DNA of 64,000 nucleotides, taken from assembly GCA_040384705.1 (NCBI GenBank), contig JAZKIU010000001.1, positions 340,026-404,025 on the forward strand. Direction: 5' to 3'. Shown piece by piece: positions 1 through 39,448 of the stretch (the stretch's first letter is position 1; every line of letters begins with the position of its first letter). Origin of the DNA: Patescibacteria group bacterium. GTDB taxonomy: Bacteria; Patescibacteriota; Minisyncoccia; Phycocordibacterales; Phycocordibacteraceae. The notes below the pieces were generated by a model. That model was not told the DNA's origin. It searched no databases and worked only from the letters and a program-made list of their open reading frames with translations. The translations under genes and the position numbers were made by a program.

Positions 1-282
1 GTAGGACGCATTAGCGGGAAGCGCATCACACTCACGCTCGCTCCTGAGGTGCGCGCGTGGCTCGCCGAAGTCGGGTACAACCCGCAGTACGGCGCGCGTC
101 CGCTCCGCCGTGCCATCCAGGACAAGATACTCACCCCGATAGCGTCGCTTATGGTGGAGCAAGGGGTCATGGAGGGCGGCTCGGTTTCAGTCACCATGAA
201 GAACGGCGCACCGCACTTCGAGGTGCATAAGACGGCGCGCAGGGCGGCAAAGTCCAAGGCGAAAGCGGCGGTTGCCTCATAA
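1..282 (+). CDS. C-terminal fragment of a Clp/Hsp100 AAA+ chaperone (ClpB/ClpC-like); 5' end lies outside the window
   Basis: Translation ...GYNPQYGARPLRRAIQDKILTPIASLMVEQG... matches the conserved C-terminal D2-small domain signature (GYDPxYGARPLKRxIQ) of ClpA/B/C family; frame is open to position 1. Confidence 0.6.
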   Translation, partial: VGRISGKRITLTLAPEVRAWLAEVGYNPQYGARPLRRAIQDKILTPIASLMVEQGVMEGGSVSVTMKNGAPHFEVHKTARRAAKSKAKAAVAS

Positions 283-310
283 CCTGGGCCCTGGTATAGT
301 CCACCTACAT

Positions 311-466
311 ATGTCACAGGATCGCCTCATAAAGCTTCGCTCCACCAAGTCGGACCACGTCTATTGGTCGCGCAAGAACAAGAAGAAAGTCGAGCGTAAG
401 ATCGAGCTCAAGAAGTTCGACCCCACGCTCCGTGAACACGTTATCTATAAGGAAGCGAAGAAATAA
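311..466 (+). CDS. rpmG: 50S ribosomal protein L33 (cysteine-less, zinc-independent form)
   Basis: 51 aa MSQDRLIKLRSTKSDHVYWSRKNKKKVERKIELKKFDPTLREHVIYKEAKK; length and the ...RLELKKFDPxxRKHVxxKE(T/A)K tail are the L33 family signature; no CxxC pairs. Confidence 0.65.
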   Translation: MSQDRLIKLRSTKSDHVYWSRKNKKKVERKIELKKFDPTLREHVIYKEAKK

Positions 467-494
467 AGGAACAACCGCCCTCTGGGCGGATTTC
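465..494 (+). terminator. Rho-independent terminator after rpmG
   Basis: Hairpin ccgccc-tct-gggcgg followed by tttcttttgtttt. Confidence 0.55.
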
Positions 495-585
495 TTTTGT
501 TTTCCAGAAAGTGTGTTATGGTGCTTTGGGGCCGGCGTTTTAGCGCCGGTAGCCTATTGTCCCAACACAAAAGGAGTTCACCCTG

Positions 586-1254
586 ATGATACGTAAGGCT
601 TTGCTCGGCTGCGTGGCCGTAGCCGCTGTGTCGCTCGCTCTTCCCGTCCAGGCCGCCACCAACTTGGTCCTGAACGGGGACTTCGAGCTCGGCAACACCG
701 CCTTCAGCAGCGATTACGCCTACTCCGTCGACACCACGCCGCCGGCCGTCTACGACGTCGACGACGACCCGAATGACGGGCATCCGGCGTTCACCAGCTT
801 CGGCGACCACACGTCCGGGGCTGGCAAGATGATGATCGTCAACGGCTCGGAAGTGCCGGGTCAGCGGGTCTGGTACCAGAACAACGTCAGCGTCACGGCC
901 AACACAACCTATTTCTTCTGGGCCTGGATCGCCTCGGCGCACCCGACCAGCCCCGCCCAGTTGAAGTTCAGCATCAACGGCACCGAGATCGGCTCCACCT
1001 TCATGGCGCCGGCCACGACCGGCAACTGGCAGAAGTTCTATACCCCCTGGAATTCGGGAGCGAACACCACGGCCGACATCGCCCTGGTGAACCAGAACAC
1101 CGACTTCAGCGGCAACGACTTCGCGCTCGATGATCTGGGCCTCTCGACCTCGGTCCCGGAACCCGCCACGTGGGCGATGATGATCATCGGCTTCGGCGGC
1201 GTGGGCTCGGTGCTGCGGCGCCAGCGCCGCAGCCACCTGCTCCAGGTCGCCTAA
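586..1254 (+). CDS. Secreted surface protein with PEP-CTERM-type C-terminal sorting signal (PEPxxWA variant); N-terminal NGDFE carbohydrate-binding-like module
   Basis: Signal peptide MIRKALLGCVAVAAVSLALPVQA; C-terminus VPEPATWAMMIIGFGGVGSVLRRQRR (PEP motif + TM helix + Arg cluster); strong RBS aaaggag 8 nt upstream; extended -10 TGtTATGGT upstream. Confidence 0.75.
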   Translation: MIRKALLGCVAVAAVSLALPVQAATNLVLNGDFELGNTAFSSDYAYSVDTTPPAVYDVDDDPNDGHPAFTSFGDHTSGAGKMMIVNGSEVPGQRVWYQNNVSVTANTTYFFWAWIASAHPTSPAQLKFSINGTEIGSTFMAPATTGNWQKFYTPWNSGANTTADIALVNQNTDFSGNDFALDDLGLSTSVPEPATWAMMIIGFGGVGSVLRRQRRSHLLQVA

Positions 1255-1280
1255 CGACCTGGCCAACCCAAAAATCTATC

Positions 1281-1312
1281 GGCCCCGGCGGAAACGCTGG
1301 GGCCTTTCTCTG
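1281..1312 (+). terminator. Rho-independent terminator (GAAA tetraloop hairpin)
   Basis: ggccccggcg-gaaa-cgctggggcc then tttctctg. Confidence 0.55.
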
Positions 1313-1455
1313 TCCCGACTCGCACAAGAAATGATTAGAATCTTCACACATTTATCATAAAGTCGTGTTATAGTGCGGCGGGGCTGTCGCATCCACTCTA
1401 TGGCTAGGCGCCGGCAACCTGTTTTTTCATCAATCCAAAGCAAGTGAGGTAAGTA

Positions 1456-2151
1456 ATGACACGCAAGTGGTCATTTGGATGCGTTCTCGCGGCGGCTGTC
1501 ATGGCTGCGGCCAGCTCGCTTCCTGTCGGTGCGGCCAACGCTGCGATCTACGTCAGTGCGACGTCGGGACCCCAAGCGGCTGTGCCGGCTGGGGGCATCC
1601 TCGTCAATTTCGACGACCCGCTTCCCTGGGGTGTCACCCTCAGCGGCAGCTACAGCATCGCTTCGGGCTCCGTCCACAACGTCAACGCCGAGCCCTGGCT
1701 CGACAAGACGAAGTATCTCTTCGCGCCGACGGCCGGGGACTCCTCGGGCAATGCGACCATCATGTTCGCCGACGCGCTGGGCTACAACGGCCTGGACAGC
1801 CTGACCTTCTACTGGGGTTCGGTCGATCAGTACAATACGCTCACGTTCTTGGACCGCCTCGGCGCCCCGATCGCTTCCATCACCGGCGCGGTCTTCCCGC
1901 CGGCGAACGGGACGCAGACCGGAGGGGCCACGAACATCAACTTCACGGCAACCTTCACCAACGAGAGCCGGGGCCTGATCGGCGGCGTGAACTTCGGTTC
2001 TGCTCGTCCCGCGTACGAGCTCGACGACTTCCACCTGGCGACCGGCTCCGTCCCCGAGCCCACCACCTGGGCGATGATGATCATCGGCTTCGGCGGCGCG
2101 GGCGCGATGCTCCGGCGCCAGCGTCGGCGCAATCTGCTTCAGGTCGCCTAG
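1456..2151 (+). CDS. Second PEP-CTERM-type (PEPxxWA) surface protein, unrelated N-terminal domain
   Basis: Signal peptide MTRKWSFGCVLAAAVMAAASSLPVGAANA; C-terminus VPEPTTWAMMIIGFGGAGAMLRRQRRRNLLQVA nearly identical to the first gene at protein and DNA level; extended -10 TGtTATAGT upstream. Confidence 0.75.
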   Translation: MTRKWSFGCVLAAAVMAAASSLPVGAANAAIYVSATSGPQAAVPAGGILVNFDDPLPWGVTLSGSYSIASGSVHNVNAEPWLDKTKYLFAPTAGDSSGNATIMFADALGYNGLDSLTFYWGSVDQYNTLTFLDRLGAPIASITGAVFPPANGTQTGGATNINFTATFTNESRGLIGGVNFGSARPAYELDDFHLATGSVPEPTTWAMMIIGFGGAGAMLRRQRRRNLLQVA

Positions 2152-2173
2152 CGGCCTGAACAAACGACCTCTT

Positions 2174-2206
2174 GGGCTCCGGCGGAAACGCCGGGGCCTT
2201 TTCTAT
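2174..2206 (+). terminator. Rho-independent terminator (same hairpin family as 1281-1312)
   Basis: gggctccggcg-gaaa-cgccggggcc then ttttct. Confidence 0.55.
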
Positions 2207-2212
2207 ACTTTT

Positions 2213-2244
2213 AGCGGGCCCACTGGGACCTTATTCGAACAGAA
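2213..2244 (+). repeat. 32 nt direct repeat copy 1 (tRNA-Trp 3'-end-like, att-like)
   Basis: agcgggcccactgggaccttattcgaacagaa; the preceding 5 nt plus first 10 nt (cttttagcgggccca, 2208-2222) are identical to 3951-3965, which is the 3' end of tRNA-Trp plus its 3' flank. Confidence 0.7.
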
Positions 2245-2317
2245 CTTTTTAGAAATATATAAAGAAAACCGCCCACCAAGTGCGACCCCGATGGGCAGCT
2301 TTCTTAGTGGGCGGGTG

Positions 2318-2863
2318 TTAGACCGCGCCGGGGTGTTCCCAGTCGAAGAAGACGCGCTTTTCGCGGTCGGTCACATTGCTGTCCAGTTCCCCGACATCTT
2401 TGCCAGGATAGATGGAGTGAACGACAGCGACAGCCTCGCCACCTTCAGACTTGAGCTCGAAGACAAGAGTGAGTTCATTCGTCTTCGGCACGAGCAGGTC
2501 GGTACGACCGGGCTTCACGCGAAGTCCCCAGCTCCTGCGGTTCAGATGGAACTCTTCGAGATCATCATTCGCGTAGTTCTGGAGCGCGCCGGTGCTCTCC
2601 CAGCCGACAGGCATCGAGTGAACGATGCTGACACTGCTGGTGCCGAACTCCTGCTTCGACCACAGCTCATCGAGCTCGGTCAGGAAGTGCTCCACCACCT
2701 CGCAGTCACTGAACAGCTGGTCGGCCGAGCACCACCGCAGGAAGTTCCCCGCGAGTGGCAGGGCGGTGCCGCGAAAGCATTTGGTCCACAACCGCTCTTC
2801 AGTGGTGCGCCGAACGACAATAGCGACACGAATACCGCTATTCAAGGTCTTGTAAATGAACAT
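2318..2863 (-). CDS. Hypothetical protein (181 aa), cargo of the first repeat-bounded cassette
   Basis: Clean ORF with non-shadow amino-acid composition, bounded by the two 32 nt repeats; a hairpin with T-run on the minus strand (2262-2300) downstream; AT-rich cassette ends. Confidence 0.5.
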   Translation of the reverse strand: MFIYKTLNSGIRVAIVVRRTTEERLWTKCFRGTALPLAGNFLRWCSADQLFSDCEVVEHFLTELDELWSKQEFGTSSVSIVHSMPVGWESTGALQNYANDDLEEFHLNRRSWGLRVKPGRTDLLVPKTNELTLVFELKSEGGEAVAVVHSIYPGKDVGELDSNVTDREKRVFFDWEHPGAV

Positions 2864-2970
2864 TTTTCCTCCTGCCAGGCTTCCTGGTTCAGGTCCGTGT
2901 ATGGCACGGATACCACATCAGAACGGGGTGTTCGGATGAATGTAAAATACTATCTAAATATAAAAAGTCA

Positions 2971-3002
2971 AGCGGGCCCACTGGAACCTTATTCGAACAG
3001 AA
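2971..3002 (+). repeat. 32 nt direct repeat copy 2 (1 mismatch to copy 1)
   Basis: agcgggcccactggaaccttattcgaacagaa. Confidence 0.7.
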
Positions 3003-3093
3003 TTGCTAAACAAGGGCGCAAGCGTATAGTCATGGCGGGATCCTGTCCCTTGCATAGGCGCTCCGATAAGCGGGGCTTAGAAGGAATATCCAA

Positions 3094-3906
3094 ATGACCG
3101 AATCGGTTTACGGGATTACCATCCCCACTGATTTAGAGTGGAATATCCCGTTCCAAAGCTGGATTGATCGGTGGAACTCGGTACAGGACGTACCGACGGC
3201 TATCGGGCTACTGCATAGTATCTATGAGGCGAACAAGGATGAGGAAAGGTCCGGGCGTAAATATGATGACCATCGCGCACTTTTTCTCCTCAAGCTGGCT
3301 GATGGCCATCGGAGGAACAGTCGCTCGGGTCTCGCGACCAAAGCATTCAATGTTCTCGGGCATTACCTATTCCGAAACGCGCACCGCCCTCGCCTCCATG
3401 ATCTTTCGGCGGAGATGAAGCGCGCGCTCCTCGCTTTCTTCGCAGGCGGGGACAGGGATGCTCTTTATGGGAACGTCCGTTGGAACGATGCTGGCACGAC
3501 ACAGTCCGAGCAGGTGACTCACGCGGACCGGCTGGCATCCGCATTTATGCGCGAGCTCTGCGATGTTGTGTGGTGCTCGGGAAGCGATGAGGAGCGGGTG
3601 CAGCTCATCGATATCTTGCATGAACAGGACGCGCTCAGAACGATAATCCCTCGGAACTACTACACTGGCTGGGATAGGTTCACGGAACCGGTCATGCAGA
3701 AGCTCGAGGAAGTCGTGAGGTCGACGGGTGATGCTAGGCTCGGGACCGATACTCCGACGCCGGAGGAGCTCATTTATAACGGCTCTGAGGCGGCCCAGGT
3801 TCTGCTTGTGAGCCGTGCTGGCAGTGAGGGCAAGGCTCGGGTCGAGCGTCGCAAGGCGCTCAAGGAGCAGATGCAACAAAATGCTTCAGAACTGGCGCAG
3901 CTCTGA
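3094..3906 (+). CDS. Hypothetical protein (270 aa), cargo of the second cassette, between repeat copy 2 and tRNA-Trp
   Basis: ORF MTESVYGITIPTDLEWNIPFQSW...; no recognisable motif; followed by terminator hairpin. Confidence 0.5.
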   Translation: MTESVYGITIPTDLEWNIPFQSWIDRWNSVQDVPTAIGLLHSIYEANKDEERSGRKYDDHRALFLLKLADGHRRNSRSGLATKAFNVLGHYLFRNAHRPRLHDLSAEMKRALLAFFAGGDRDALYGNVRWNDAGTTQSEQVTHADRLASAFMRELCDVVWCSGSDEERVQLIDILHEQDALRTIIPRNYYTGWDRFTEPVMQKLEEVVRSTGDARLGTDTPTPEELIYNGSEAAQVLLVSRAGSEGKARVERRKALKEQMQQNASELAQL

Positions 3907-3926
3907 GTACTCAGCGTCCATACCGA

Positions 3927-3955
3927 CCCCGGAGAAATCCGGGGTCACTTCTTTT
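3927..3955 (+). terminator. Terminator hairpin for the 3094-3906 gene, abutting the tRNA 3' end
   Basis: ccccgg-agaaat-ccgggg then tcacttctttt. Confidence 0.45.
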
Positions 3956-3957
3956 AG

Positions 3958-4028
3958 CGGGCCCAGTAGGAATCGAACCTACGCCATCGGATTTGGAGGC
4001 CGAAGTTCTACCATTAAACTATAGGCCC
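3958..4028 (-). tRNA. tRNA-Trp (anticodon CCA), no encoded CCA tail
   Basis: Reverse complement GGGCCTATAGTTTAATGGTAGAACTTCGGCCTCCAAATCCGATGGCGTAGGTTCGATTCCTACTGGGCCCG: 7 bp acceptor (one G-U), D arm GTTT/GAAC, anticodon loop CTCCAAA, T arm GTAGG-TTCGATT-CCTAC. Confidence 0.8.
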
Positions 4029-4153
4029 TAAGCGAGATCACGCAGCGTAGCCTTGTGCGCCAAGAAATTCTCGGCTCTCGTCCTGTCAGATTAGCAGAAA
4101 CCATCTTGTGGGCAAAGGAGCCGCGCCCTGCGCTTTGCGGGTACAATAGCTCT

Positions 4154-5233
4154 ATGCACCCGTTCCGGGCCTTTCTCCTCATTGCGCTCGCGTTCTGCGT
4201 ATTCATGCCGCAGCCGCTTATCGCTGCCGAGCTGCCGCTCCTCGATCCGGGTTGGTCCATCGTCCCAGACCCGAGCGAGCTCGATTCCTCCTGCAGGCCA
4301 ACCGACCCGCTCGGTATGGGCGGAATACTCGTGCTCGTGCAGAACCTCATGAATGCCGCCGTCTCGCTTACGGTCATCGTGATGGTGATCGTCATCGCGT
4401 ACGCAGGATTCCTCTTTCTCACCTCGCCCTTCAATAGCGAGAACCGCAGCAAGGCGAAGAGCACGCTCGCCGGCACCTTCATGGGCGTCATCATCGTGCT
4501 CGCTGGGTGGCTCCTCGTCGACTTCGTCATGAAAGTCGTCTATGACCCCGATGCGGTCTTCGCCGGCAAGCAGATAGGTCCTTGGAGTCAGATAATCACA
4601 GGGGGCGATGCCTGCATCAAGGCCCGCGACACAAAGCCACTCTTCGGTAGCCTTCCCTTCTCGCCAGGAGGAGGACCGAGCGTGAATGCGGAGCTCGGTG
4701 CCGGCGGCGGATACGCAGGTCCCGGCCAACCCGCATCGCTCGGTACCGCTGACTGCTCGCCGAGCCGCATTGCGACTGCAGCAGCCGCCGGCGGGTACCG
4801 GCTCACGGACGCGCAGGCGAATACGTTCTCGTGCCTCGCTAAGTCGGAGAGCTCGTGCGGACAGAATATCAGCGGTGCTAAGACGAAAGACGGAAAGAGC
4901 ACGACGGCACACGGCATGTTCCAGGTGGTGATGGGATACGATGATCAGTGCCATAATCTCAATATTCCTGTGTGCAGTGCAGCTGCGAAGAGGGCGGGGT
5001 GGACGGGGTCCGGCAACCTGAATTGCTCCACGGCGTTCAGCGGTGGAAAGCCGAAGAAAGGGATGGAAGCGCTTGCGAACGTATGCAAGGCGGCCTCCGC
5101 GAGCATCGATTGCAATGCATCGGCTGCTGCTTGCTTGGTTAAAGAGAGTCCAAGCTTCCGTGATTGGACGGGCACCGGTGACGGGCACACCCATGCCGCG
5201 CAGAAAGCCTGCGTCGCGAAGTATGCTAAGTAA
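4154..5233 (+). CDS. TrbC/VirB2-like pilin domain fused to a lytic-transglycosylase-like (SLT/lysozyme-like) C-terminal domain
   Basis: Signal peptide MHPFRAFLLIALAFCVFMPQPLIAAE; two TM helices flanking SPFNSENRSKAKSTL (pilin-like SxxNPExxxxAK core); C-terminal LAKSESSCGQNISGAKTKDGKSTTAHGMFQVVMGY fits the SLT motif ES...GA...G(L/M)(M/F)Q; Cys-rich tail; -10 TACAAT 8 nt before the ATG. Confidence 0.55.
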   Translation: MHPFRAFLLIALAFCVFMPQPLIAAELPLLDPGWSIVPDPSELDSSCRPTDPLGMGGILVLVQNLMNAAVSLTVIVMVIVIAYAGFLFLTSPFNSENRSKAKSTLAGTFMGVIIVLAGWLLVDFVMKVVYDPDAVFAGKQIGPWSQIITGGDACIKARDTKPLFGSLPFSPGGGPSVNAELGAGGGYAGPGQPASLGTADCSPSRIATAAAAGGYRLTDAQANTFSCLAKSESSCGQNISGAKTKDGKSTTAHGMFQVVMGYDDQCHNLNIPVCSAAAKRAGWTGSGNLNCSTAFSGGKPKKGMEALANVCKAASASIDCNASAAACLVKESPSFRDWTGTGDGHTHAAQKACVAKYAK

Positions 5234-5816: not shown

Positions 5817-6749
5817 ATGAAGGGCACTCTCATCGCAATAGTCATCTTTCTCGGCGTGTTCCTCATCGCCTCGCCCGCGGCGTACGCAGCGGAATCGACG
5901 TTCTTCGGTCCCATCGTCCCAACCGAATGCCAGAGCTGTCCCTGCGGATATGCTGGGGTGCTTGAGATAATCCGGCACCTCATGAACTTCGCGGTGTCGT
6001 TCGGCGTCATCGTCGTGACCATCATGCTCGCATGGGGCGGCTTCATGTATATCGTTTCGGTCGCGAATCCCGAGAATCGGCGTCAGGCGAATAGCCTCAT
6101 CAGCGGTGCTGTCATCGGGCTCTTCCTGGTGCTCGGCTCGTGGCTCATCATCGATTTCATAATGCGTGCGGCATATAGTGGGCCGGACGGTACGGAAGGG
6201 AAGTTCGGTCCCTGGAACAGCATCCTCGCCGAGAGTGCGGACTTCTGCATCGTTGCGAAGCAGACGAAGCCGCTATTCAGCGACCTGGACTTCAGCGGCC
6301 CGAGTACGAATCCGACGGATGCCGATCCGAACACGAATCCGGTCGATCCGAGTATGCCAGTTGATCCGAAGGCGGATGGCAAGTTCTCGTACCAGGGAGG
6401 CATAAGCGCGCAGGCTGGACACGCAGCACCGGTGCTCAATTCGCTCCTCTCCTGCATGGCTGCTCGCGTCCCTGCGAACGTCGGCCAGATATCATCTATC
6501 TCCGATAGCCGGATCGTGAACGGCGATAAGACATTCGTGCAGTGCAATCAAGGCGGTTGCGCCCATTCCGCGGGCTCATGCCACTACGGAGGCAATCAAT
6601 GTACCGGCAAATCCTACGCCGTCGACTTCGGTGATGAGGTGAACAAAGTCGTGCTCATGAAAGCGGCGCGTGCGTGCGGCGCGAACTTCGTGAAAGACGA
6701 AGGCGATCACGTCCACGTGAGCGTGGGAGCGAGCTGCGGCTGCAACTAA
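5817..6749 (+). CDS. Second TrbC/VirB2-like pilin domain fused to a Cys/His-rich C-terminal domain (possibly LAS/M15-like metallopeptidase)
   Basis: Signal peptide plus two TM helices around VSVANPENRRQANSLI; Pro/Asp-rich linker; C-terminal CAHSAGSCHYGG...AVDFGDE...GDHVHVSV with His/Asp spacing reminiscent of Zn-dependent cell-wall peptidases; the peptidase call is weak. Confidence 0.5.
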   Translation: MKGTLIAIVIFLGVFLIASPAAYAAESTFFGPIVPTECQSCPCGYAGVLEIIRHLMNFAVSFGVIVVTIMLAWGGFMYIVSVANPENRRQANSLISGAVIGLFLVLGSWLIIDFIMRAAYSGPDGTEGKFGPWNSILAESADFCIVAKQTKPLFSDLDFSGPSTNPTDADPNTNPVDPSMPVDPKADGKFSYQGGISAQAGHAAPVLNSLLSCMAARVPANVGQISSISDSRIVNGDKTFVQCNQGGCAHSAGSCHYGGNQCTGKSYAVDFGDEVNKVVLMKAARACGANFVKDEGDHVHVSVGASCGCN

Positions 6750-13613: not shown

Positions 13614-13886
13614 TGTAGTTAGAGAAAGCGTGCAGCAATACGAGGGGATACGATGCTATGTTCTTTGTGCCATTTTGCCGAGAAGCCGTGCGAGGCAGCG
13701 AAAGAAGGGACTCGGGTGATGTGCGAATGGGCGCGTGAGCGCACCGACGCGATACATGCCGCGGCCCAGGCGCGGCGAGTGCCAGTTCCTCCGGAAGGAA
13801 CGTTGGGGGACCTCGAGCGCCGTTTCGGCTAGTAGCGGCTTCGGCCCACAAAAGAAGACCCCATGGCTTGCGCCGTGGGGTTCCTT

Positions 13887-16295
13887 TTATTTCAAGTATT
13901 CAGCGGCCTCTTCCGGCGTGAACGTATCGGTATCAAGGCTCTCGGGCAGATAAATGCGCCGCAAGCCTTTCTTCAGGAAGAATCCCTGCTTTGATTTATA
14001 GAGCGTGAGCAGCTTGCCGGTCTTGGGGTGCTTGCCGATATCCTTCACGAGCGTGACGCCCTTAGGTGGCTGCTTCGGTATGGCGAGGAGCTCGACCGCG
14101 CGCTCGAACGATACCGTGTACGGATCGTCAGCGCCCTTGAGCGATCGGAACTCGCCGTTATGCGCGATATAGGGACCGAATCGTCCGGTGTTCGCGAGCA
14201 CGGGCTCGTTCGTGTCGGGATGAGACCCTAGCTCGCGCGGGAGCGAGAGATACTTCACCGCGTCAGCGAGCGTGAGCGAAGAAAGGTCGGTGCCCGCGGG
14301 AATGCTTGCGCGCCGCGCATTTATTTTCTTCTTCTTGGGTTTCTTCGCGACACGCTTCTTCGCCCCGGCTTTCTTTGCTGGCTTCTTCGGTTCCTCGACT
14401 ACCTCCGCCTCGGGCTCTTCATCCTCGAGCGGCATCTCGACGTACGGACCGAAGCGCCCGGTGCGTATGAAAATAGGGCGACCGGTATCGGGATGGATGC
14501 CGATAGGTTCATCGTTCTTCACTTCTGTTCCGTCCTCCTGGCGCGCGCCTTCGCACTCGGGGTACCGTGTGCAGCTCATGAACACGCCGCCGCGTCCGAG
14601 CTTGAATTCCATAGGGGCACCGCATACGGGGCACGGGAATTCAGCAGGAGCCGCGCCAAGCGAGGTCGCTTTCGGAAGCTTGTCCTTCGCGAGCACCGCC
14701 TTATTGAAAGGTCCGTAGAATTCCGTAAGCGTCGCTTCATAGCCGCGTTCACCGCGCGCTATCTCATCGAGCTCGTCCTCCATCTCAGCGGTGAAGGAGT
14801 CGCTGATATATTCCGGGAAATGCTCCTCGAGCCAGCCGGACACCACCATGCCGGTCGCGGTTGGCGTGAGCGTCCGTCCAGTTTTCTCGACGTAGCCGCG
14901 GTCCTGGATGGTCTTCATCGTGGAGGCATAGGTCGAAGGGCGTCCGATGCCGCGCTTCTCGAGCTCCTTGATGAGTCCGGCTTCGGTGTATCGGTTAGGC
15001 GGCTCGGTCTGCTTCTCGGTAGCGTCGAGGGAGACGAGGTCGAGCTTTTCTCCTTCGGTGAGCTTCGGAAGTTCCACATCCTCGCCGCGCGCACGGGTGT
15101 CGCAGGCAAGCCAGCCGGGGAATATAACTCTCGACCCGTTCGCGGAGAAGAGCGGTATATCCGCATCAGCCTGTGCTTTCACTCCGGTCTTCTGGAGCTT
15201 CGCTGCCGCCATCTGGGACGCGAGCGTGCGTACGCGGATGAGCTCATAGAGATGCTGCTCGTCGCCGGGCGCGCCTGCGCTGTGCTTGCTCGGATCCGTA
15301 GGACGCACCGCTTCGTGCGCCTCCTGCGCATTCTTGCTCTTCGTCTTGTAGGCACGTGTCTCGACGTATTCCTTCCCGAACTCCGCATCGACTATCTCTG
15401 CGATCTTGGTTATCGCATCCGCACCCAGGTTCACGGAGTCCGTACGCATATACGTAATGTGCCCTGCCTCATACAGCTTCTGTGCCGCGCGCATGGTGCG
15501 GCTCGGCGAGAATCCGAGACGCGTGGACGCGACCTGCTGGAGCGTGGAGGTCGTGAATGGGGGACGCGGGTTACGCTCCTCCGCACGCTCGGTGACGCTC
15601 CCAACCTTCCACGCAGCCTTCTTGCCGAGCGTGAGTATGCGCTCCGCTTCTTCAGCTGTCTTAGGCTGCTCGACGCAGACGGCAGGGAACTTGCCGCCGT
15701 TAGCGGCGAATACGGCATCGAGCGTGAAGTATGTCTCGGGGATGAATGCCTGTATCTCGCGCTCGCGCTCGGCGAGTATGCGTAGCGCAGGGGACTGCAC
15801 ACGCCCGGCGGAGAGGCCGTACCGTACCTTCTTCCAGATGAGGCCGGAGAGGTCGTATCCCACGATGCGGTCGAGCACGCGACGTGCCTCCTGCGCGTAG
15901 CGGAGGTCCTGGTCGATGGCGCGCGGGTGGGTGAGCGCCTCCTCGACGGCTGCCTTGGTTATCTCATGGAACACGACGCGCTGCGGTTTCTTGAGGCCCA
16001 CTGCTTCCTGGACATGCCATGCGATGGCTTCCCCCTCGCGGTCGGGGTCTGTCGCGAGGTATATCTCGTCGGCCTTCGCGGCTGCGATGCGTATGCGCTC
16101 GATGACATCGTGCTTGCCTGCCGATATGACGTAGCGGGGCTTGAACCCGTTCTCGATATCGACGGCATCCTTGTTCGATTTCGGAAGGTCACGGACGTGG
16201 CCCACGGAAGCGAGCACCTCGTATTCCTTTCCGAGGTATTGCTGTATCGTCCTCGCTTTCGCGGGCGACTCGACTATGAGCAATCGTTTAGCCAT
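13887..16295 (-). CDS. topA: DNA topoisomerase I
   Basis: MAKRLLIVESPAKARTIQQYLGKEYEVLASVGHVRDLP Toprim N-terminus; C-terminal Zn-ribbon Cys pairs; 802 aa. Confidence 0.9.
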   Translation of the reverse strand: MAKRLLIVESPAKARTIQQYLGKEYEVLASVGHVRDLPKSNKDAVDIENGFKPRYVISAGKHDVIERIRIAAAKADEIYLATDPDREGEAIAWHVQEAVGLKKPQRVVFHEITKAAVEEALTHPRAIDQDLRYAQEARRVLDRIVGYDLSGLIWKKVRYGLSAGRVQSPALRILAEREREIQAFIPETYFTLDAVFAANGGKFPAVCVEQPKTAEEAERILTLGKKAAWKVGSVTERAEERNPRPPFTTSTLQQVASTRLGFSPSRTMRAAQKLYEAGHITYMRTDSVNLGADAITKIAEIVDAEFGKEYVETRAYKTKSKNAQEAHEAVRPTDPSKHSAGAPGDEQHLYELIRVRTLASQMAAAKLQKTGVKAQADADIPLFSANGSRVIFPGWLACDTRARGEDVELPKLTEGEKLDLVSLDATEKQTEPPNRYTEAGLIKELEKRGIGRPSTYASTMKTIQDRGYVEKTGRTLTPTATGMVVSGWLEEHFPEYISDSFTAEMEDELDEIARGERGYEATLTEFYGPFNKAVLAKDKLPKATSLGAAPAEFPCPVCGAPMEFKLGRGGVFMSCTRYPECEGARQEDGTEVKNDEPIGIHPDTGRPIFIRTGRFGPYVEMPLEDEEPEAEVVEEPKKPAKKAGAKKRVAKKPKKKKINARRASIPAGTDLSSLTLADAVKYLSLPRELGSHPDTNEPVLANTGRFGPYIAHNGEFRSLKGADDPYTVSFERAVELLAIPKQPPKGVTLVKDIGKHPKTGKLLTLYKSKQGFFLKKGLRRIYLPESLDTDTFTPEEAAEYLK

Positions 16296-16329
16296 TAGTA
16301 GAAGGCATACCGCGATGTAGTACGTATGG

Positions 16330-17199
16330 TCAAGTGACGGTCATGCGCGAAGTGCGTCGCCACGCACCGAATGCCTCACGCGCATAGCCTTTCAGTTCGA
16401 GCGTAACGAGCGCGGTTATCGCTATCGCAGGAGCGAGGTTCGACCTTCTGATGAGTTCGCTCCGAGCGAGCGGCTCCGCCAAGAGTGCGTACATGGTTTC
16501 TTCCTCCGGGGATAGGTTCTCGGGCTCGCGGACCTCCTCCTCTCGAGCTGGGATGCCAAGCGCTTCTAATATATGTATGGGCTCTGAAACGGGGGTTGCG
16601 CCAAGCCGCAGGAATAGATGGGCGCCGAATCCATGCAGGTCGCCTATGCGGTGCGGCACGCACAGAAGCTCCCGATTGTATTCAGCCGCGAGCCGGGCCG
16701 TGATGAGCGTCCCAGAGCGCTCCCCAGCTTCTATCATAAGAACGGCCTGAGAGATGCCCACCATAAGGCGGTTCCGCTGCGGGAACATCCAGGGCGCAGG
16801 ATGCGCGTCGGGCTTGTATTCAGAAATAAGCGCCCCACCAGCCTGGAGTATTTCCCTGGCGAGTCCGGCATTCGTGCGAGGGGCGATGACGTTATCGGCA
16901 AGTCCAGAACCTGGAAAGGCAATGGTGTGGAGCCCTGCACTAAGCGCGGCTCTGTGCGCTACGGCGTCAACACCGAGCGCAAGTCCGGAAGCGATAGTGA
17001 TAGGATAGCCGGCAAGTTCTGCGATGAGTTTTTCGCATGCTTGCTTTCCGTATGGAGTGAGCGCGCGGGACCCCACGACGGTCAGAAGTTCATTCCTGAT
17101 GGGCGGGAGTGCGCCGCGAATCCAGAGCTGCTCCGGCACTTGGGGTATCTCTCGCAACTGTACTGGGTAGTCGTTTGGAGCAATAGTTCGTATTTCCAT
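16330..17199 (-). CDS. dprA: DNA processing protein DprA (Smf)
   Basis: Rossmann-like SRALTPYGKQACEKLIAELAG...GLALGVDAVAHRAAL, DprA family. Confidence 0.85.
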   Translation of the reverse strand: MEIRTIAPNDYPVQLREIPQVPEQLWIRGALPPIRNELLTVVGSRALTPYGKQACEKLIAELAGYPITIASGLALGVDAVAHRAALSAGLHTIAFPGSGLADNVIAPRTNAGLAREILQAGGALISEYKPDAHPAPWMFPQRNRLMVGISQAVLMIEAGERSGTLITARLAAEYNRELLCVPHRIGDLHGFGAHLFLRLGATPVSEPIHILEALGIPAREEEVREPENLSPEEETMYALLAEPLARSELIRRSNLAPAIAITALVTLELKGYAREAFGAWRRTSRMTVT

Positions 17200-23485: not shown

Positions 23486-24184
23486 CAAAAGTGCTTCATC
23501 TCGAGTGACCCGCGTGCCACTTGCGGCAATACAGGCAGCGATACGCATGTGCACCACTACGCAAACGCCTCGCCTCGCGAGCAGCACTGGCTTCATTCCG
23601 GTGTGCGACCTTTCTCCAGCATCCTCTATACCGGCGCCAGAAGAAGCGGAAAATAGCTCGTATGGTGCTCATGATACGTGATCCATAACAGGACACAGTA
23701 TACCGGCTGCAAGTACTCCCATGCGCAAAGAGAAACGCCACCCCGAAGGGTGACGCCTAGAACATCTAACTCGTTTAGATAATCCTTCTTCCGCGACTGA
23801 GCGCATAGCCCGAGCCGCGGTGCTCTCTAAGCGGCAAGGGGAAGCGCGCCTGCTGCTCCGAACTCAAAAGGCCTCGAAGCAGTCCAGCAGTCGACCAATA
23901 CCGGGCTCGATACTGGCTGTAGCGGCTGGCATAGCGTTCAAGGTTCAGAAGAAGGACCGACACCTGCCTCCACTTCTTCTGCCGTCGAATCGTCTTTCTC
24001 CGCGTTCGTTGAGCATTCCGGCGCGATCGCTCCGCGTCTTGCTTGCGCATGTGCACCTCCAAAAATCTGCTTGGACTATATACCAGCCGAGGAATGCAGC
24101 AAACATGGAATGGCCGGAAGGGATGAGTGTTGTTTTTTATAAAACTTATGATATAATCAGTGCACTAACACCAACTATCTACTC

Positions 24185-38528: not shown

Positions 38529-39269
38529 CTACCAGCTCTTCCGGGGGGTCTCGACTCGCGTCGAGGTTCCAGCGGAGGAATAGTTCGAAGAAGTGGTCGA
38601 GGAACCGATAGTCACATCGACGTGCTGCAAGAGGCAGTAGTCGTTGATCATACCGGCCCAGCCGATCGACATCTCCATATTCATCACGCTCATGTCGAGC
38701 TGAAGCTGGGATTGATCGGAGTTCAGCAGGCTTTGACGCCTGTTGAGCTTCGACTGCTTCGTATAGGCAGAGCCGGTCGCTTCGTTGCCGAGACCGGCAG
38801 CGACAGCGCCGCCGCAGTACCAGCCGCCGCTCACCGTGCAGAGGGCGGCCGTCGTGAAGACGTTCGCACCCCGCCTGAGCCAGGAAGCGCGGTTGATGTC
38901 GCTGCCGAGCTTGACGAGCTTGTTGCGGATGATCTGATTCTCCGCGCTCAGCACCCCGGCTCGCTCGATGAAGCCGATAGAGCGACGAATCCATTCACCG
39001 CTCTGAGCGCACGCGCTTCGGTTCTCGTTCTGGATGAGGCGGAATCCCGCTTCACCCTTCGTCGGATACCGGCTCATGTACTCATCGAGGCCCATGACAC
39101 CGATGTCGTTGTCGCCTTGCCGGGGAGCGCGCACGCCGCCCGTCAGTCCGCTTCCGGTCACGATGATGCGTTCATCGCCGACGGCGACTTGCGCCGTTGC
39201 GGGAAGAGCGAACGCGGACGTGATCAGCGCGAGGGCAGCCCCCGCGCCCAGATATCTGGTCTTGGACAT
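38529..39269 (-). CDS. Secreted hypothetical protein
   Basis: Signal peptide MSKTRYLGAGAALALITSAFALPATAQ; Cys pairs; the ORF extends to 39308 but the signal peptide places the start at 39269. Confidence 0.45.
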   Translation of the reverse strand: MSKTRYLGAGAALALITSAFALPATAQVAVGDERIIVTGSGLTGGVRAPRQGDNDIGVMGLDEYMSRYPTKGEAGFRLIQNENRSACAQSGEWIRRSIGFIERAGVLSAENQIIRNKLVKLGSDINRASWLRRGANVFTTAALCTVSGGWYCGGAVAAGLGNEATGSAYTKQSKLNRRQSLLNSDQSQLQLDMSVMNMEMSIGWAGMINDYCLLQHVDVTIGSSTTSSNYSSAGTSTRVETPRKSW

Positions 39270-39448
39270 GGGTTTCCCCTCCAAAATGGTTGCTGTTGCA
39301 GAGTTCACTTATTAGCGTAATGGCAGAGAACTCCTACCTGACTGTATACACTTATAACATGCGTTTGTCAATACCCTGGAAGAAGTTTGACATTCCGCCT
39401 ATCCATTAGCCTTGCGAGCCAGCAGGATCGCGGCTACCTTAAAGAAAC

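Follow-up and report, generated by a model that had tools for sequence, protein, structure and literature searches.

Sorting of surface proteins by means of a PEP-CTERM tail has hitherto been regarded as characteristic of diderm bacteria that produce EPS. In its classical form, the system occurs only in bacteria with an outer membrane and with EPS loci; as a rule, these bacteria encode at least four substrates together with an exosortase (PMC1569441). In sequenced genomes, PEP-CTERM proteins and EpsH homologues co-occur almost perfectly, the median number of substrates in the genomes bearing the system is eight, and the tails have long been known to be more alike within than between genomes (Haft 2006, PMC1569441). 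CPR bacteria, on the other hand, have been proposed to be devoid of an outer membrane (PMC6744442). In this work, we describe a CPR locus with two neighbouring PEPxxWA-CTERM genes, which as a whole is best explained (with a probability of roughly 0.5) by the transfer of lectin-like PEPxxWA genes into a variable slot and by the surface display of their products through tail anchoring. The claim is a modest one, since the protein families are known and it is the host that is unexpected.

The window, i.e., the whole 64-kb stretch of DNA analysed, belongs to a 640,007-bp Patescibacteria contig, in line with the earlier note on this DNA, which took the genome to be reduced. The host can be placed among CPR bacteria of the Paceibacteria type; the closest relatives of its ClpB are those of Candidatus Paceibacterota/Parcubacteria, and PF18895 (T4SS-pilin-like) genes adjoin the locus. 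The window ORFs that were scanned yielded neither outer-membrane nor EPS genes. Both ORFs described previously are present on the plus strand, gene 1 at 586..1254 (222 aa, MES2994797.1) and gene 2 at 1456..2151 (231 aa; 216 aa in the PGAP version, MES2994798.1), and they end in SVPEPATWAMMIIGFGGVGSVLRRQRRSHLLQVA and SVPEPTTWAMMIIGFGGAGAMLRRQRRRNLLQVA, respectively. Their assignment to the PEPxxWA-type PEP-CTERM proteins, for which the earlier note had proposed a comparison with HMMs, is clearly upheld: with NF035944 (PEPxxWA-CTERM, curated cut-off 35 bits) gene 1 scored 49.3 bits (E 3e-13) and gene 2 45.1 bits (E 6.5e-12), and TIGR02595 and PF07589 were above their cut-offs as well. The NF035944 match spans residues 190-213 of 222 in gene 1 and 199-222 of 231 in gene 2, that is, the extreme C-terminus. 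The putative signal peptides (about 586-654 and about 1456-1542), judged by inspection, are hydrophobic N-termini ending in AxA (LALPVQA/AT and PVGAANA/AI); they are followed by the passenger (about 655-1146 in gene 1) and by the sorting tail (1153-1254 and 2050-2151). The tail of gene 1 comprises the VPEP motif, a TM helix and RRQRR; in both proteins the C-terminal helix was predicted by AF2, and the RRQRR clusters were read from the sequence. Both proteins already carry PEPxxWA-CTERM names at NCBI and are ordinary members of known families, correctly named there beforehand. The best explanation of the gene arrangement is two independent single-gene transcription units, each encoding a small secreted lectin-like protein.

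The two passengers share no sequence relationship, just as had been described, and the BLASTP alignment of the two proteins is confined to the tails (22/32 residues). The model of gene 1 (pLDDT 88.7) matched the CBM22/16/4 fold in Foldseek (E 3e-7, TM about 0.66 on the target). A Pfam search gave no significant CBM match for gene 1 itself, and PF02018 is present in several of its homologues; the earlier reading of this passenger as a carbohydrate-binding-like module therefore agrees with both the fold and the homologues. Gene 2 had been described as a Gly/Ser/Thr-rich beta-rich domain, and it turned out to be more than that: residues 47-191 matched NF050191, the Npun_F0296 family, with 46.7 bits (cut-off 29 bits), and the model (pLDDT 84) resembled CBM6/29/35-like folds (E about 1e-3), a CBM-like beta-sandwich. 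Both passengers are thus modelled as CBM-like beta-sandwiches, which suggests that they may bind glycans.

The genes lie in a slot whose conserved left border is rpmG (ribosomal protein L33; 311..466, plus strand; assigned from its translation and from PF00471 on the relatives' orthologue), with its terminator at 475-489. On its right, the PEP-CTERM pair is delimited by the outermost repeat resembling the tRNA-Trp 3′ end (2208..2244, plus strand); a second copy, 97% identical over 32 nt, is found at 2966..3002 (plus strand), and the variable region as a whole is bordered on the right by tRNA-Trp(cca) (3957..4028, minus strand), the 3′ end of which represents a third, partial copy. In the relatives, the flanking synteny is kept (ClpB, rpmG, ORF181, tRNA-Trp, T4SS pilins, MiaA, AhpC), and the slot has various contents: genes 1 and 2 in the window, genes gA and gB in L001, a single PEPxxWA gene with a fourth passenger together with an S8 peptidase in L104, and none in L100, where the outermost tRNA-Trp-like repeat lies directly 3′ of the rpmG terminator. 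With 0, 1 or 2 PEPxxWA genes in three related genomes and four passenger types in all, the cassette-like turnover suspected earlier is borne out. All five slot genes from three genomes passed NF035944 (scores of the relatives' genes 50.1, 39.0 and 45.7), and each of them retains VPEPxTWA in full.

Genes 1 and 2 and the two genes of L001 could be aligned with one another through their upstream, start and terminator parts, and they have in common a nearly identical 22-24-nt terminator stem-loop and the start ATGA(T/C)ACG(N)AAG. In the proteobacterial homologues L004 and L019, the upstream region, the start of the signal peptide and the terminator are all different, so that neither the GGCCCCGGCGGAAACGCCGGGGCC-type terminator nor the MxRK start is present in these homologues, both being features of the CPR copies. 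The idea that the PEP genes are tRNA-site cassettes, with 5′UTRs derived from degenerate tRNA-Trp-like repeats, was rejected because the local alignments were no better than those of shuffles (p about 0.1 to 1).

As to the mode of action, the proteins would be exported by Sec with subsequent removal of the signal peptide, and the C-terminal TM helix with its Arg cluster would retain them in the cytoplasmic membrane. Since an outer membrane is presumably absent from cells of this type, anchoring alone would suffice to display the glycan-binding domain on the surface; in other words, the tail by itself could serve as a display device in such a cell, and the displayed domain may be an adhesin for a host or a matrix polysaccharide. 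Cleavage at the PEP motif would take place only if the rest of the genome (about 90%, outside the window) encodes an exosortase. We lean slightly towards a system that works without a cognate exosortase. The main competitor is a complete, functional PEP-CTERM/exosortase system in which the genome's own enzyme, encoded elsewhere and perhaps co-transferred from the same alphaproteobacterial donors, cuts both proteins at the PEP motif and, as in classical systems, either attaches or releases them; we regard it as possible but somewhat less likely. It would account for the intact VPEPxTWA motif, above the curated cut-off in 5/5 CPR genes of three genomes; such conservation hints that a sorting enzyme, and not a mere anchor function, has exerted the selection. 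Moreover, it agrees with the almost perfect co-occurrence of PEP-CTERM proteins with EpsH (PMC1569441) and with the fact that the lineage kept or re-acquired four different passengers, all bearing this tail. However, no more than one or two PEP-CTERM genes can be seen in each genome instead of the classical median of eight, one close relative has no PEP-CTERM gene at the slot at all, and CPR bacteria presumably have no outer membrane, a structure found in all classical PEP-CTERM organisms.

Within the 64-kb window and around the locus in the relatives, the search for the enzyme points in the same direction. The absence of an exosortase from the window, noted earlier, was confirmed: only five window ORFs have at least four TM segments, and none of them fits (VIT1, a histidine kinase, TspO, a T4SS-pilin-like protein and ATP synthase a). 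A six-frame scan of the 64 kb revealed no other PEP-CTERM-like tail, PF09721 was not found within 10 kb on either side of ClpB in the relatives, and no further protein of the 640,007-bp contig appeared among the matches of either homologue search, in which candidates are pre-filtered. The neighbourhoods of homologues were scanned for an exosortase that could serve as a seed: the TM-rich ORFs in the Phenylobacterium loci, in a 40-kb stretch of a Sphingomonas megaplasmid that includes a PEPxxWA gene and in 80 metagenome loci are transporters or belong to other families, and no exosortase is among them. A literature search retrieved nothing relevant on exosortase or PEP-CTERM in CPR/Patescibacteria, nor on "PEPxxWA", and hence no link between exosortases and CPR bacteria.

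The common 3′ DNA of the two genes described in the earlier note was found again. The 31-mer TGGGCGATGATGATCATCGGCTTCGGCGGCG has exactly two copies in the window (at 1171 and 2068), a repeat finder aligned 1149-1266 with 2046-2163 (118 nt, 84% identity), and the likeness continues into the non-coding terminator sequence: the intrinsic terminators on the plus strand at 1281..1304 (GGCCCCGGCGGAAACGCTGGGGCC followed by a T run) and 2174..2199 (GGGCTCCGGCGGAAACGCCGGGGCCT followed by a T run) have a GAAA loop and were both called terminator-like, and the segments 1281-1307 and 2175-2201 are 93% identical. ORF 3094..3906 is also terminated by a GAAA-loop CCCCGG hairpin. Much of the DNA identity of the tails results from amino-acid conservation and codon bias; of the 25 degenerate codons encoding the same amino acid, 17 are identical vs. 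12.4 expected, an excess too small to prove gene conversion. The tail DNA of gene 1 is 81% identical to that of gene 2 vs. 73% to that of its orthologue, while the passengers of gene 1 and the orthologue are 79% identical, so that the 3′ ends are more alike within this genome than between orthologues. This likeness is best accounted for by tandem duplication, or by recombination of adjoining 3′ ends, acting atop the strong amino-acid and codon constraints.

The claim of near-identical promoters stands only in part. The motif AAAGTnGTGTTATRGTGC does precede both genes, at 507 and 1359 (3 matches vs. 0.07 expected), and includes the extended -10 boxes TGTTATGGT (514..522, plus strand) of gene 1 and TGTTATAGT (1366..1374, plus strand) of gene 2. 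Nevertheless, the same box, TGnTAT(A/G)GT, is also present upstream of rpmG (292), uvrA and other genes, with further copies of this type at 24149, 31682, 44795 and 51333, and the promoter likeness thus largely reflects the general consensus of the genome. Downstream of its promoter, gene 1 has a 5′UTR hairpin, GGCCGGCG-UUUUA-GCGCCGGU (528..551, plus strand; MFE -22.5 kcal/mol, z -2.5), and the RBS AAGGAG (571-576, plus strand). The L001 orthologue of gene 1 bears a hairpin at the same place with a different stem sequence, and in gene 2 and L001 gA the hairpin is weak or absent; its conservation across all four genes was therefore rejected in favour of gene 1 and its orthologue only. An Rfam search of 1-4200 gave no match in the 5′UTRs.

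These data bear on a second rival, according to which there was no cassette history: the genes would have arrived independently, and their likeness would reflect standard expression signals together with amino-acid and codon constraint on a 24-residue sorting domain. In its favour are the genome-wide occurrence of the extended -10 box, the modest excess of identical synonymous codons, the GAAA-loop hairpin behind ORF 3094..3906 and the distribution of the 31-mer, which among 185,579 genomes was found in 13 places (nine in Phenylobacterium records and four in other Proteobacteria), recurring in 13 unrelated genes purely via codon bias. Against it, the terminator stem-loop and the start are common to the four window/L001 genes and absent from proteobacterial homologues of the same passengers, the tail of gene 1 is nearer to its neighbour than to its own orthologue, and the L104 gene departs from the pattern, which is thus not one imposed by the genome. 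We therefore hold this rival to be quite improbable.

Returning to the reading by transfer and tail anchoring, we found that both genes belong to alphaproteobacterial (Caulobacterales/Sphingomonadales-type) families and were evidently acquired horizontally by this CPR lineage. Among the 120 of 529 gene 1 homologues listed, the query was the only named Patescibacteria, and the named matches were those of Phenylobacterium, Sandaracinobacteroides, Vicinamibacterales and Bacteroidetes. One homologue, 71% identical, adjoins YceI and PQQ-dehydrogenase genes on a contig with 69.5% GC. The 31-mer, too, points to this source, with nine of its 13 matches in Phenylobacterium records and the rest in other Proteobacteria. 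In an unrooted-style NJ tree of gene 1, the two CPR copies group as sisters and fall, nested, within the proteobacterial sequences, and GC3 is 0.90 for gene 1 and 0.85 for gene 2, the highest in the window, vs. 0.72 ± 0.055 for the other window genes; the probable direction of transfer rests on this nesting and on the composition. That alphaproteobacterial DNA was merely joined to a CPR contig by assembly or binning, as GC3 and the alphaproteobacterial nature of the closest named homologues might suggest, is largely refuted and highly improbable, given the same ClpB-rpmG-PEP junction in independent assemblies of different samples and studies (Logan SRR25434977/78 and Hainich ERZ1292623/43), the extended -10 box of the CPR genome in front of both genes, the terminator and start region common to CPR relatives and not to proteobacterial homologues, and the conserved flanking synteny. 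The earlier note had missed the horizontal origin from Alphaproteobacteria; the CPR host, the variable slot, the CBM-like folds of both passengers, and the CPR-specific terminator and MxRK start are likewise new.

A bolder version of the preferred reading can be put forward, which in its entirety we consider unlikely. An ultra-small, single-membrane CPR episymbiont would repeatedly capture Caulobacterales-type PEPxxWA lectin-like proteins in one hypervariable slot and display them by an exosortase-free anchor; the passengers would be adhesins for a host or matrix, and the slot a host-range locus fed by host DNA, the Caulobacterales-type Alphaproteobacteria that served as donors possibly being the hosts. 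In any case, intact subtype-specific tails in a CPR lineage open two possibilities: exosortase-type sorting may reach cells without an outer membrane, or the sorting signal may take on a new role as a plain anchor once it has been transferred. The locus provides a comparable example of surface-protein renewal in genome-reduced episymbionts, an example that rests on one variable slot, on four passenger types among near relatives and on Phenylobacterium-like donors. Donor signatures of this kind could help to guess the hosts of uncultivated CPR bacteria.

When compared with known systems, the locus resembles PEP-CTERM/exosortase (EpsH, XrtA/B, CrtB; PMC1569441; Nostoc CrtB, PMC12188702) in the tripartite tail (PEP motif, TM helix, Arg cluster), in the presumed Sec export and in tails that are more alike within a genome, but differs in a host thought to have no outer membrane, in the one or two substrates visible per genome and in the absence of the enzyme from the 64-kb window. 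The monoderm systems LPXTG/sortase and PGF-CTERM/archaeosortase A follow an analogous logic, a Sec-exported protein held on a single-membrane cell by a C-terminal TM helix and a basic tail, with a motif and enzyme family different from those of the PEPxxWA tail; sortases are common in CPR bacteria, and the window yielded neither a sortase nor an archaeosortase. As for the passengers, that of gene 1 is modelled with the same beta-jelly roll as CBM4/9, CBM16 and CBM22 modules but differs from them in having no glycoside hydrolase attached and no significant Pfam CBM match, whereas gene 2 shares the domain match and the beta-sandwich fold of the Npun_F0296 family (NF050191), being only 36% identical to any named member. 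The PEPxxWA-CTERM proteins of Alphaproteobacteria (NF035944; Phenylobacterium, Sphingomonas, Polymorphobacter) have the same tail, VPEPxTWAxMIxGFG plus a basic cluster, the same passenger families (63-71% identity for gene 1 and 36-48% for gene 2) and, in the Phenylobacterium genes, the identical 31-mer. Unlike these, the genes described here belong to a 640-kb Patescibacteria genome and not to a diderm proteobacterium, bear a promoter, start region and terminator of the CPR type, and are seen as two copies in a variable slot beside rpmG and tRNA-Trp, with no exosortase in the 64-kb window.

Gene 1 (586..1254, plus strand) and gene 2 (1456..2151, same strand) lie downstream of rpmG (311..466), which is preceded by the 3′ end of clpB. 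By ORF translation they encode proteins of 222 aa and 231 aa, each with an AxA-type signal peptide, a passenger (the N-terminal part ahead of the sorting tail) and the C-terminus SVPEP(A/T)TWAMMIIGFGG-G--LRRQRR--LLQVA with a predicted helix. In an NCBIfam profile search both passed NF035944 (“PEPxxWA-CTERM”; 49.3 bits for gene 1 and 45.1 bits for gene 2, curated cut-off 35 bits), and TIGR02595 and PF07589 were passed as well. The gene 2 passenger matched NF050191, the Npun_F0296 exosortase-dependent surface protein domain (46.7 bits vs. a cut-off of 29), and the BLASTP alignment between the two proteins was limited to the last ~32 residues. At the DNA level, a 118-nt 3′ block is 84% identical (1149-1266 vs. 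2046-2163), identity between the two GAAA-loop terminators is 93% across 27 nt, a shared 31-mer has its sole window positions at 1171 and 2068, and the box AAAGTnGTGTTATRGTGC stands upstream of both genes. These results confirm what an earlier note had observed from the sequence, namely, two PEPxxWA-type genes with shared tail DNA and terminator. The basic annotation is already known: NCBI holds both exact proteins, MES2994797.1 and MES2994798.1, on a 640,007-bp contig under the title [quoted passage not shown]. The PGAP model of gene 2 (MES2994798.1, 216 aa) begins 15 codons 3′ of the ATG at 1456 (region 1456..1500); since this ATG has GAGG 7 nt upstream and yields the MTRK... N-terminus common to the genes of a related metagenome locus, L001, the deposited model has probably lost part of the signal peptide.

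Not all of the shared DNA speaks for a module. The extended −10 box TGnTAT(A/G)GT is also found ahead of six further genes, among them rpmG and uvrA, and is the ordinary promoter type of this genome rather than a cassette-specific element. The looser box TGnTAT(A/G)(A/G/T)T has 11 copies on the plus strand of the window (which carries 52 of its 68 likely genes) and none on the minus strand, seven of the 11 lying just 5′ of genes (292, 514, 1366, 24149, 31682, 44795 and 51333). In the tails, codons are identical at 17 of the 25 degenerate positions with the same amino acid vs. 12.4 expected from the codon usage of the two genes, and much of the tail identity thus reflects amino-acid constraint and GC3 bias. 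The homology continues past the coding sequence into the non-coding terminator.

The AlphaFold models were confident (pLDDT 88.7 for gene 1 and 84.1 for gene 2). The modelled gene 1 passenger resembles the jelly rolls of CBM22, CBM16 and CBM4 (E 3e-7), and PF02018 is present in several of its homologues; the modelled gene 2 passenger is a beta-sandwich closest to CBM6, CBM29 and CBM35 (E about 1e-3). The reading that suits these folds best is that the products are small surface proteins binding glycans.

Between rpmG and tRNA-Trp lies a variable slot, as seen in near relatives whose ClpB shares at least 93% identity with the L001 protein. In the window it holds gene 1 (CBM-like) and gene 2 (Npun_F0296); in L001, gene A with a third passenger and gene B, the gene 1 orthologue; in L104, one gene with a fourth passenger and an 839-aa S8 peptidase; in L100, 0 PEP genes and a response regulator in their place. 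The L104 peptidase (13842..16361), which lies 3′ of the single PEPxxWA gene, is secreted, bears Big_7 and Laminin_G_3, has no PEP-CTERM tail and is not present in the window. All five PEP genes passed NF035944. Genes 1 and 2 and both L001 genes have in common an ATGA(T/C)ACGnAAG (MxRK) start and a GGCCCCGGCGGAAACGCCGGGGCC-type terminator with a compensatory change at one pair; the L104 gene fits this chassis more poorly, and proteobacterial homologues with the same passengers (L004, L019) differ in upstream regions, signal-peptide starts and terminators. The gene 1 passenger is 79% identical to its orthologue, and the gene 1 tail resembles that of the adjacent gene 2 (81%) more than that of its own orthologue (73%). 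This points to exchange between adjacent 3′ ends and supports the proposed cassette-like shuffling, in a small sample and with tail likeness within a genome being a known PEP-CTERM trait (PMC1569441).

Downstream of gene 2, a 32-nt direct repeat, AGCGGGCCCACTGG(G/A)ACCTTATTCGAACAGAA (97% identical; 2208-2244 and 2966-3002), has a third, partial copy (3951-3971) at the 3′ end of tRNA-Trp (3957..4028, minus strand), and the first ~14 nt of the full repeat match the tRNA acceptor end in reverse complement. The repeats bound two short segments with one ORF each (2318..2863, minus strand; 3094..3906, plus strand), both ORFs lacking a Pfam match. The cargo differs in relatives, being an unrelated 138-aa ORF in L001 and a response regulator in L100. 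The repeats resemble att-type scars left by successive insertions into the tRNA site, but no integrase is present.

Several lines of evidence concern the origin of the genes. Among 120 listed of 529 gene 1 homologues, the sole Patescibacteria-named one was the query itself, and the named relatives included Phenylobacterium (63% identity) and Sandaracinobacteroides; a homologue with 71% identity adjoins YceI and a PQQ-dehydrogenase, its contig having 69.5% GC. The passenger NJ tree groups gene 1 with the L001 copy as sisters, and the pair nests within these homologues. The best gene 2 homologues among the matches reached just 46-48% identity, and the one locus examined (L019) has a non-CPR-looking gene context. 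The 31-mer was found at 13 places in 185,579 species genomes (nine Phenylobacterium records and four other Proteobacteria), in genes with many different passengers. GC3 is 0.90 in gene 1 and 0.85 in gene 2 vs. 0.72 ± 0.055 in the other 66 window ORFs. We conclude that the genes were transferred into the CPR lineage from Caulobacterales- or Sphingomonadales-type Alphaproteobacteria, the direction being inferred, not proven. On the Sphingomonas paeninsulae plasmid NZ_CP032828.1 (L018, 18277..20180), a gene for a CPBP-family intramembrane metalloprotease sits immediately 5′ of a PEPxxWA-CTERM gene and points away from it, a pairing that is probably incidental.

As the earlier note stated, the window encodes no exosortase: its five ORFs with at least four TM segments, in any frame, are VIT1, a histidine kinase, TspO, a T4SS-pilin-like protein and ATP synthase subunit a. 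In relatives, the Pfam-labelled genes lying up to 10 kb from clpB in either direction likewise included no PF09721. We give a probability of about one half to the tails functioning as plain membrane anchors; on a single-membrane cell, anchoring would suffice for surface display. An exosortase encoded elsewhere in the genome is a less probable though serious alternative, favoured by the VPEPxTWA signature being intact in five genes, and lesser alternatives share the rest of the weight.

The window neighbours include two T4SS-pilin-like proteins (PF18895), MiaA, TopA, UvrABC and the F-type ATP synthase, and in a syntenic relative ClpB shares 81-93% identity with proteins that carry the label Candidatus Paceibacterota or Parcubacteria. 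Together with the Patescibacteria label of the contig, this identifies the suspected reduced genome as a CPR genome. A chimeric junction is rejected, because clpB-rpmG is followed by PEP-CTERM genes of 227 aa and 219 aa in L001 (Logan assembly, SRR25434977; the second 72% identical to gene 1) and by a 217-aa PEPxxWA gene in the Hainich groundwater contigs L104 and L105, and downstream synteny is preserved (ORF181 orthologue, 85% identity; tRNA-Trp, two T4SS-pilin genes, miaA, ahpC). The neighbourhood is rich in surface-protein genes, PF18895 genes flanking the slot (4055..5233 and 5817..6749) and five more standing in a row ~8 kb 5′ of clpB in relatives (L100/L104, 1-2300). A LAGLIDADG homing-endonuclease gene lies between alr and rbfA in L102 (5303..6097) and L104 (5407..6072), with none in L100. 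Elsewhere in the window, a 259-aa ORF (38529..39308, minus strand) with a clear signal peptide (…ALALITSAFALPATAQ) and no Pfam match may likewise encode a secreted or surface protein.

Taken together, the PEPxxWA-CTERM proteins of genes 1 and 2 are ordinary and their host is unusual; the genes were acquired horizontally and sit in a variable slot. In Haft’s original survey, every bacterium with PEP-CTERM had both an outer membrane and EPS genes (PMC1569441), whereas CPR bacteria, the host here among them, are thought to lack an outer membrane (PMC6744442).
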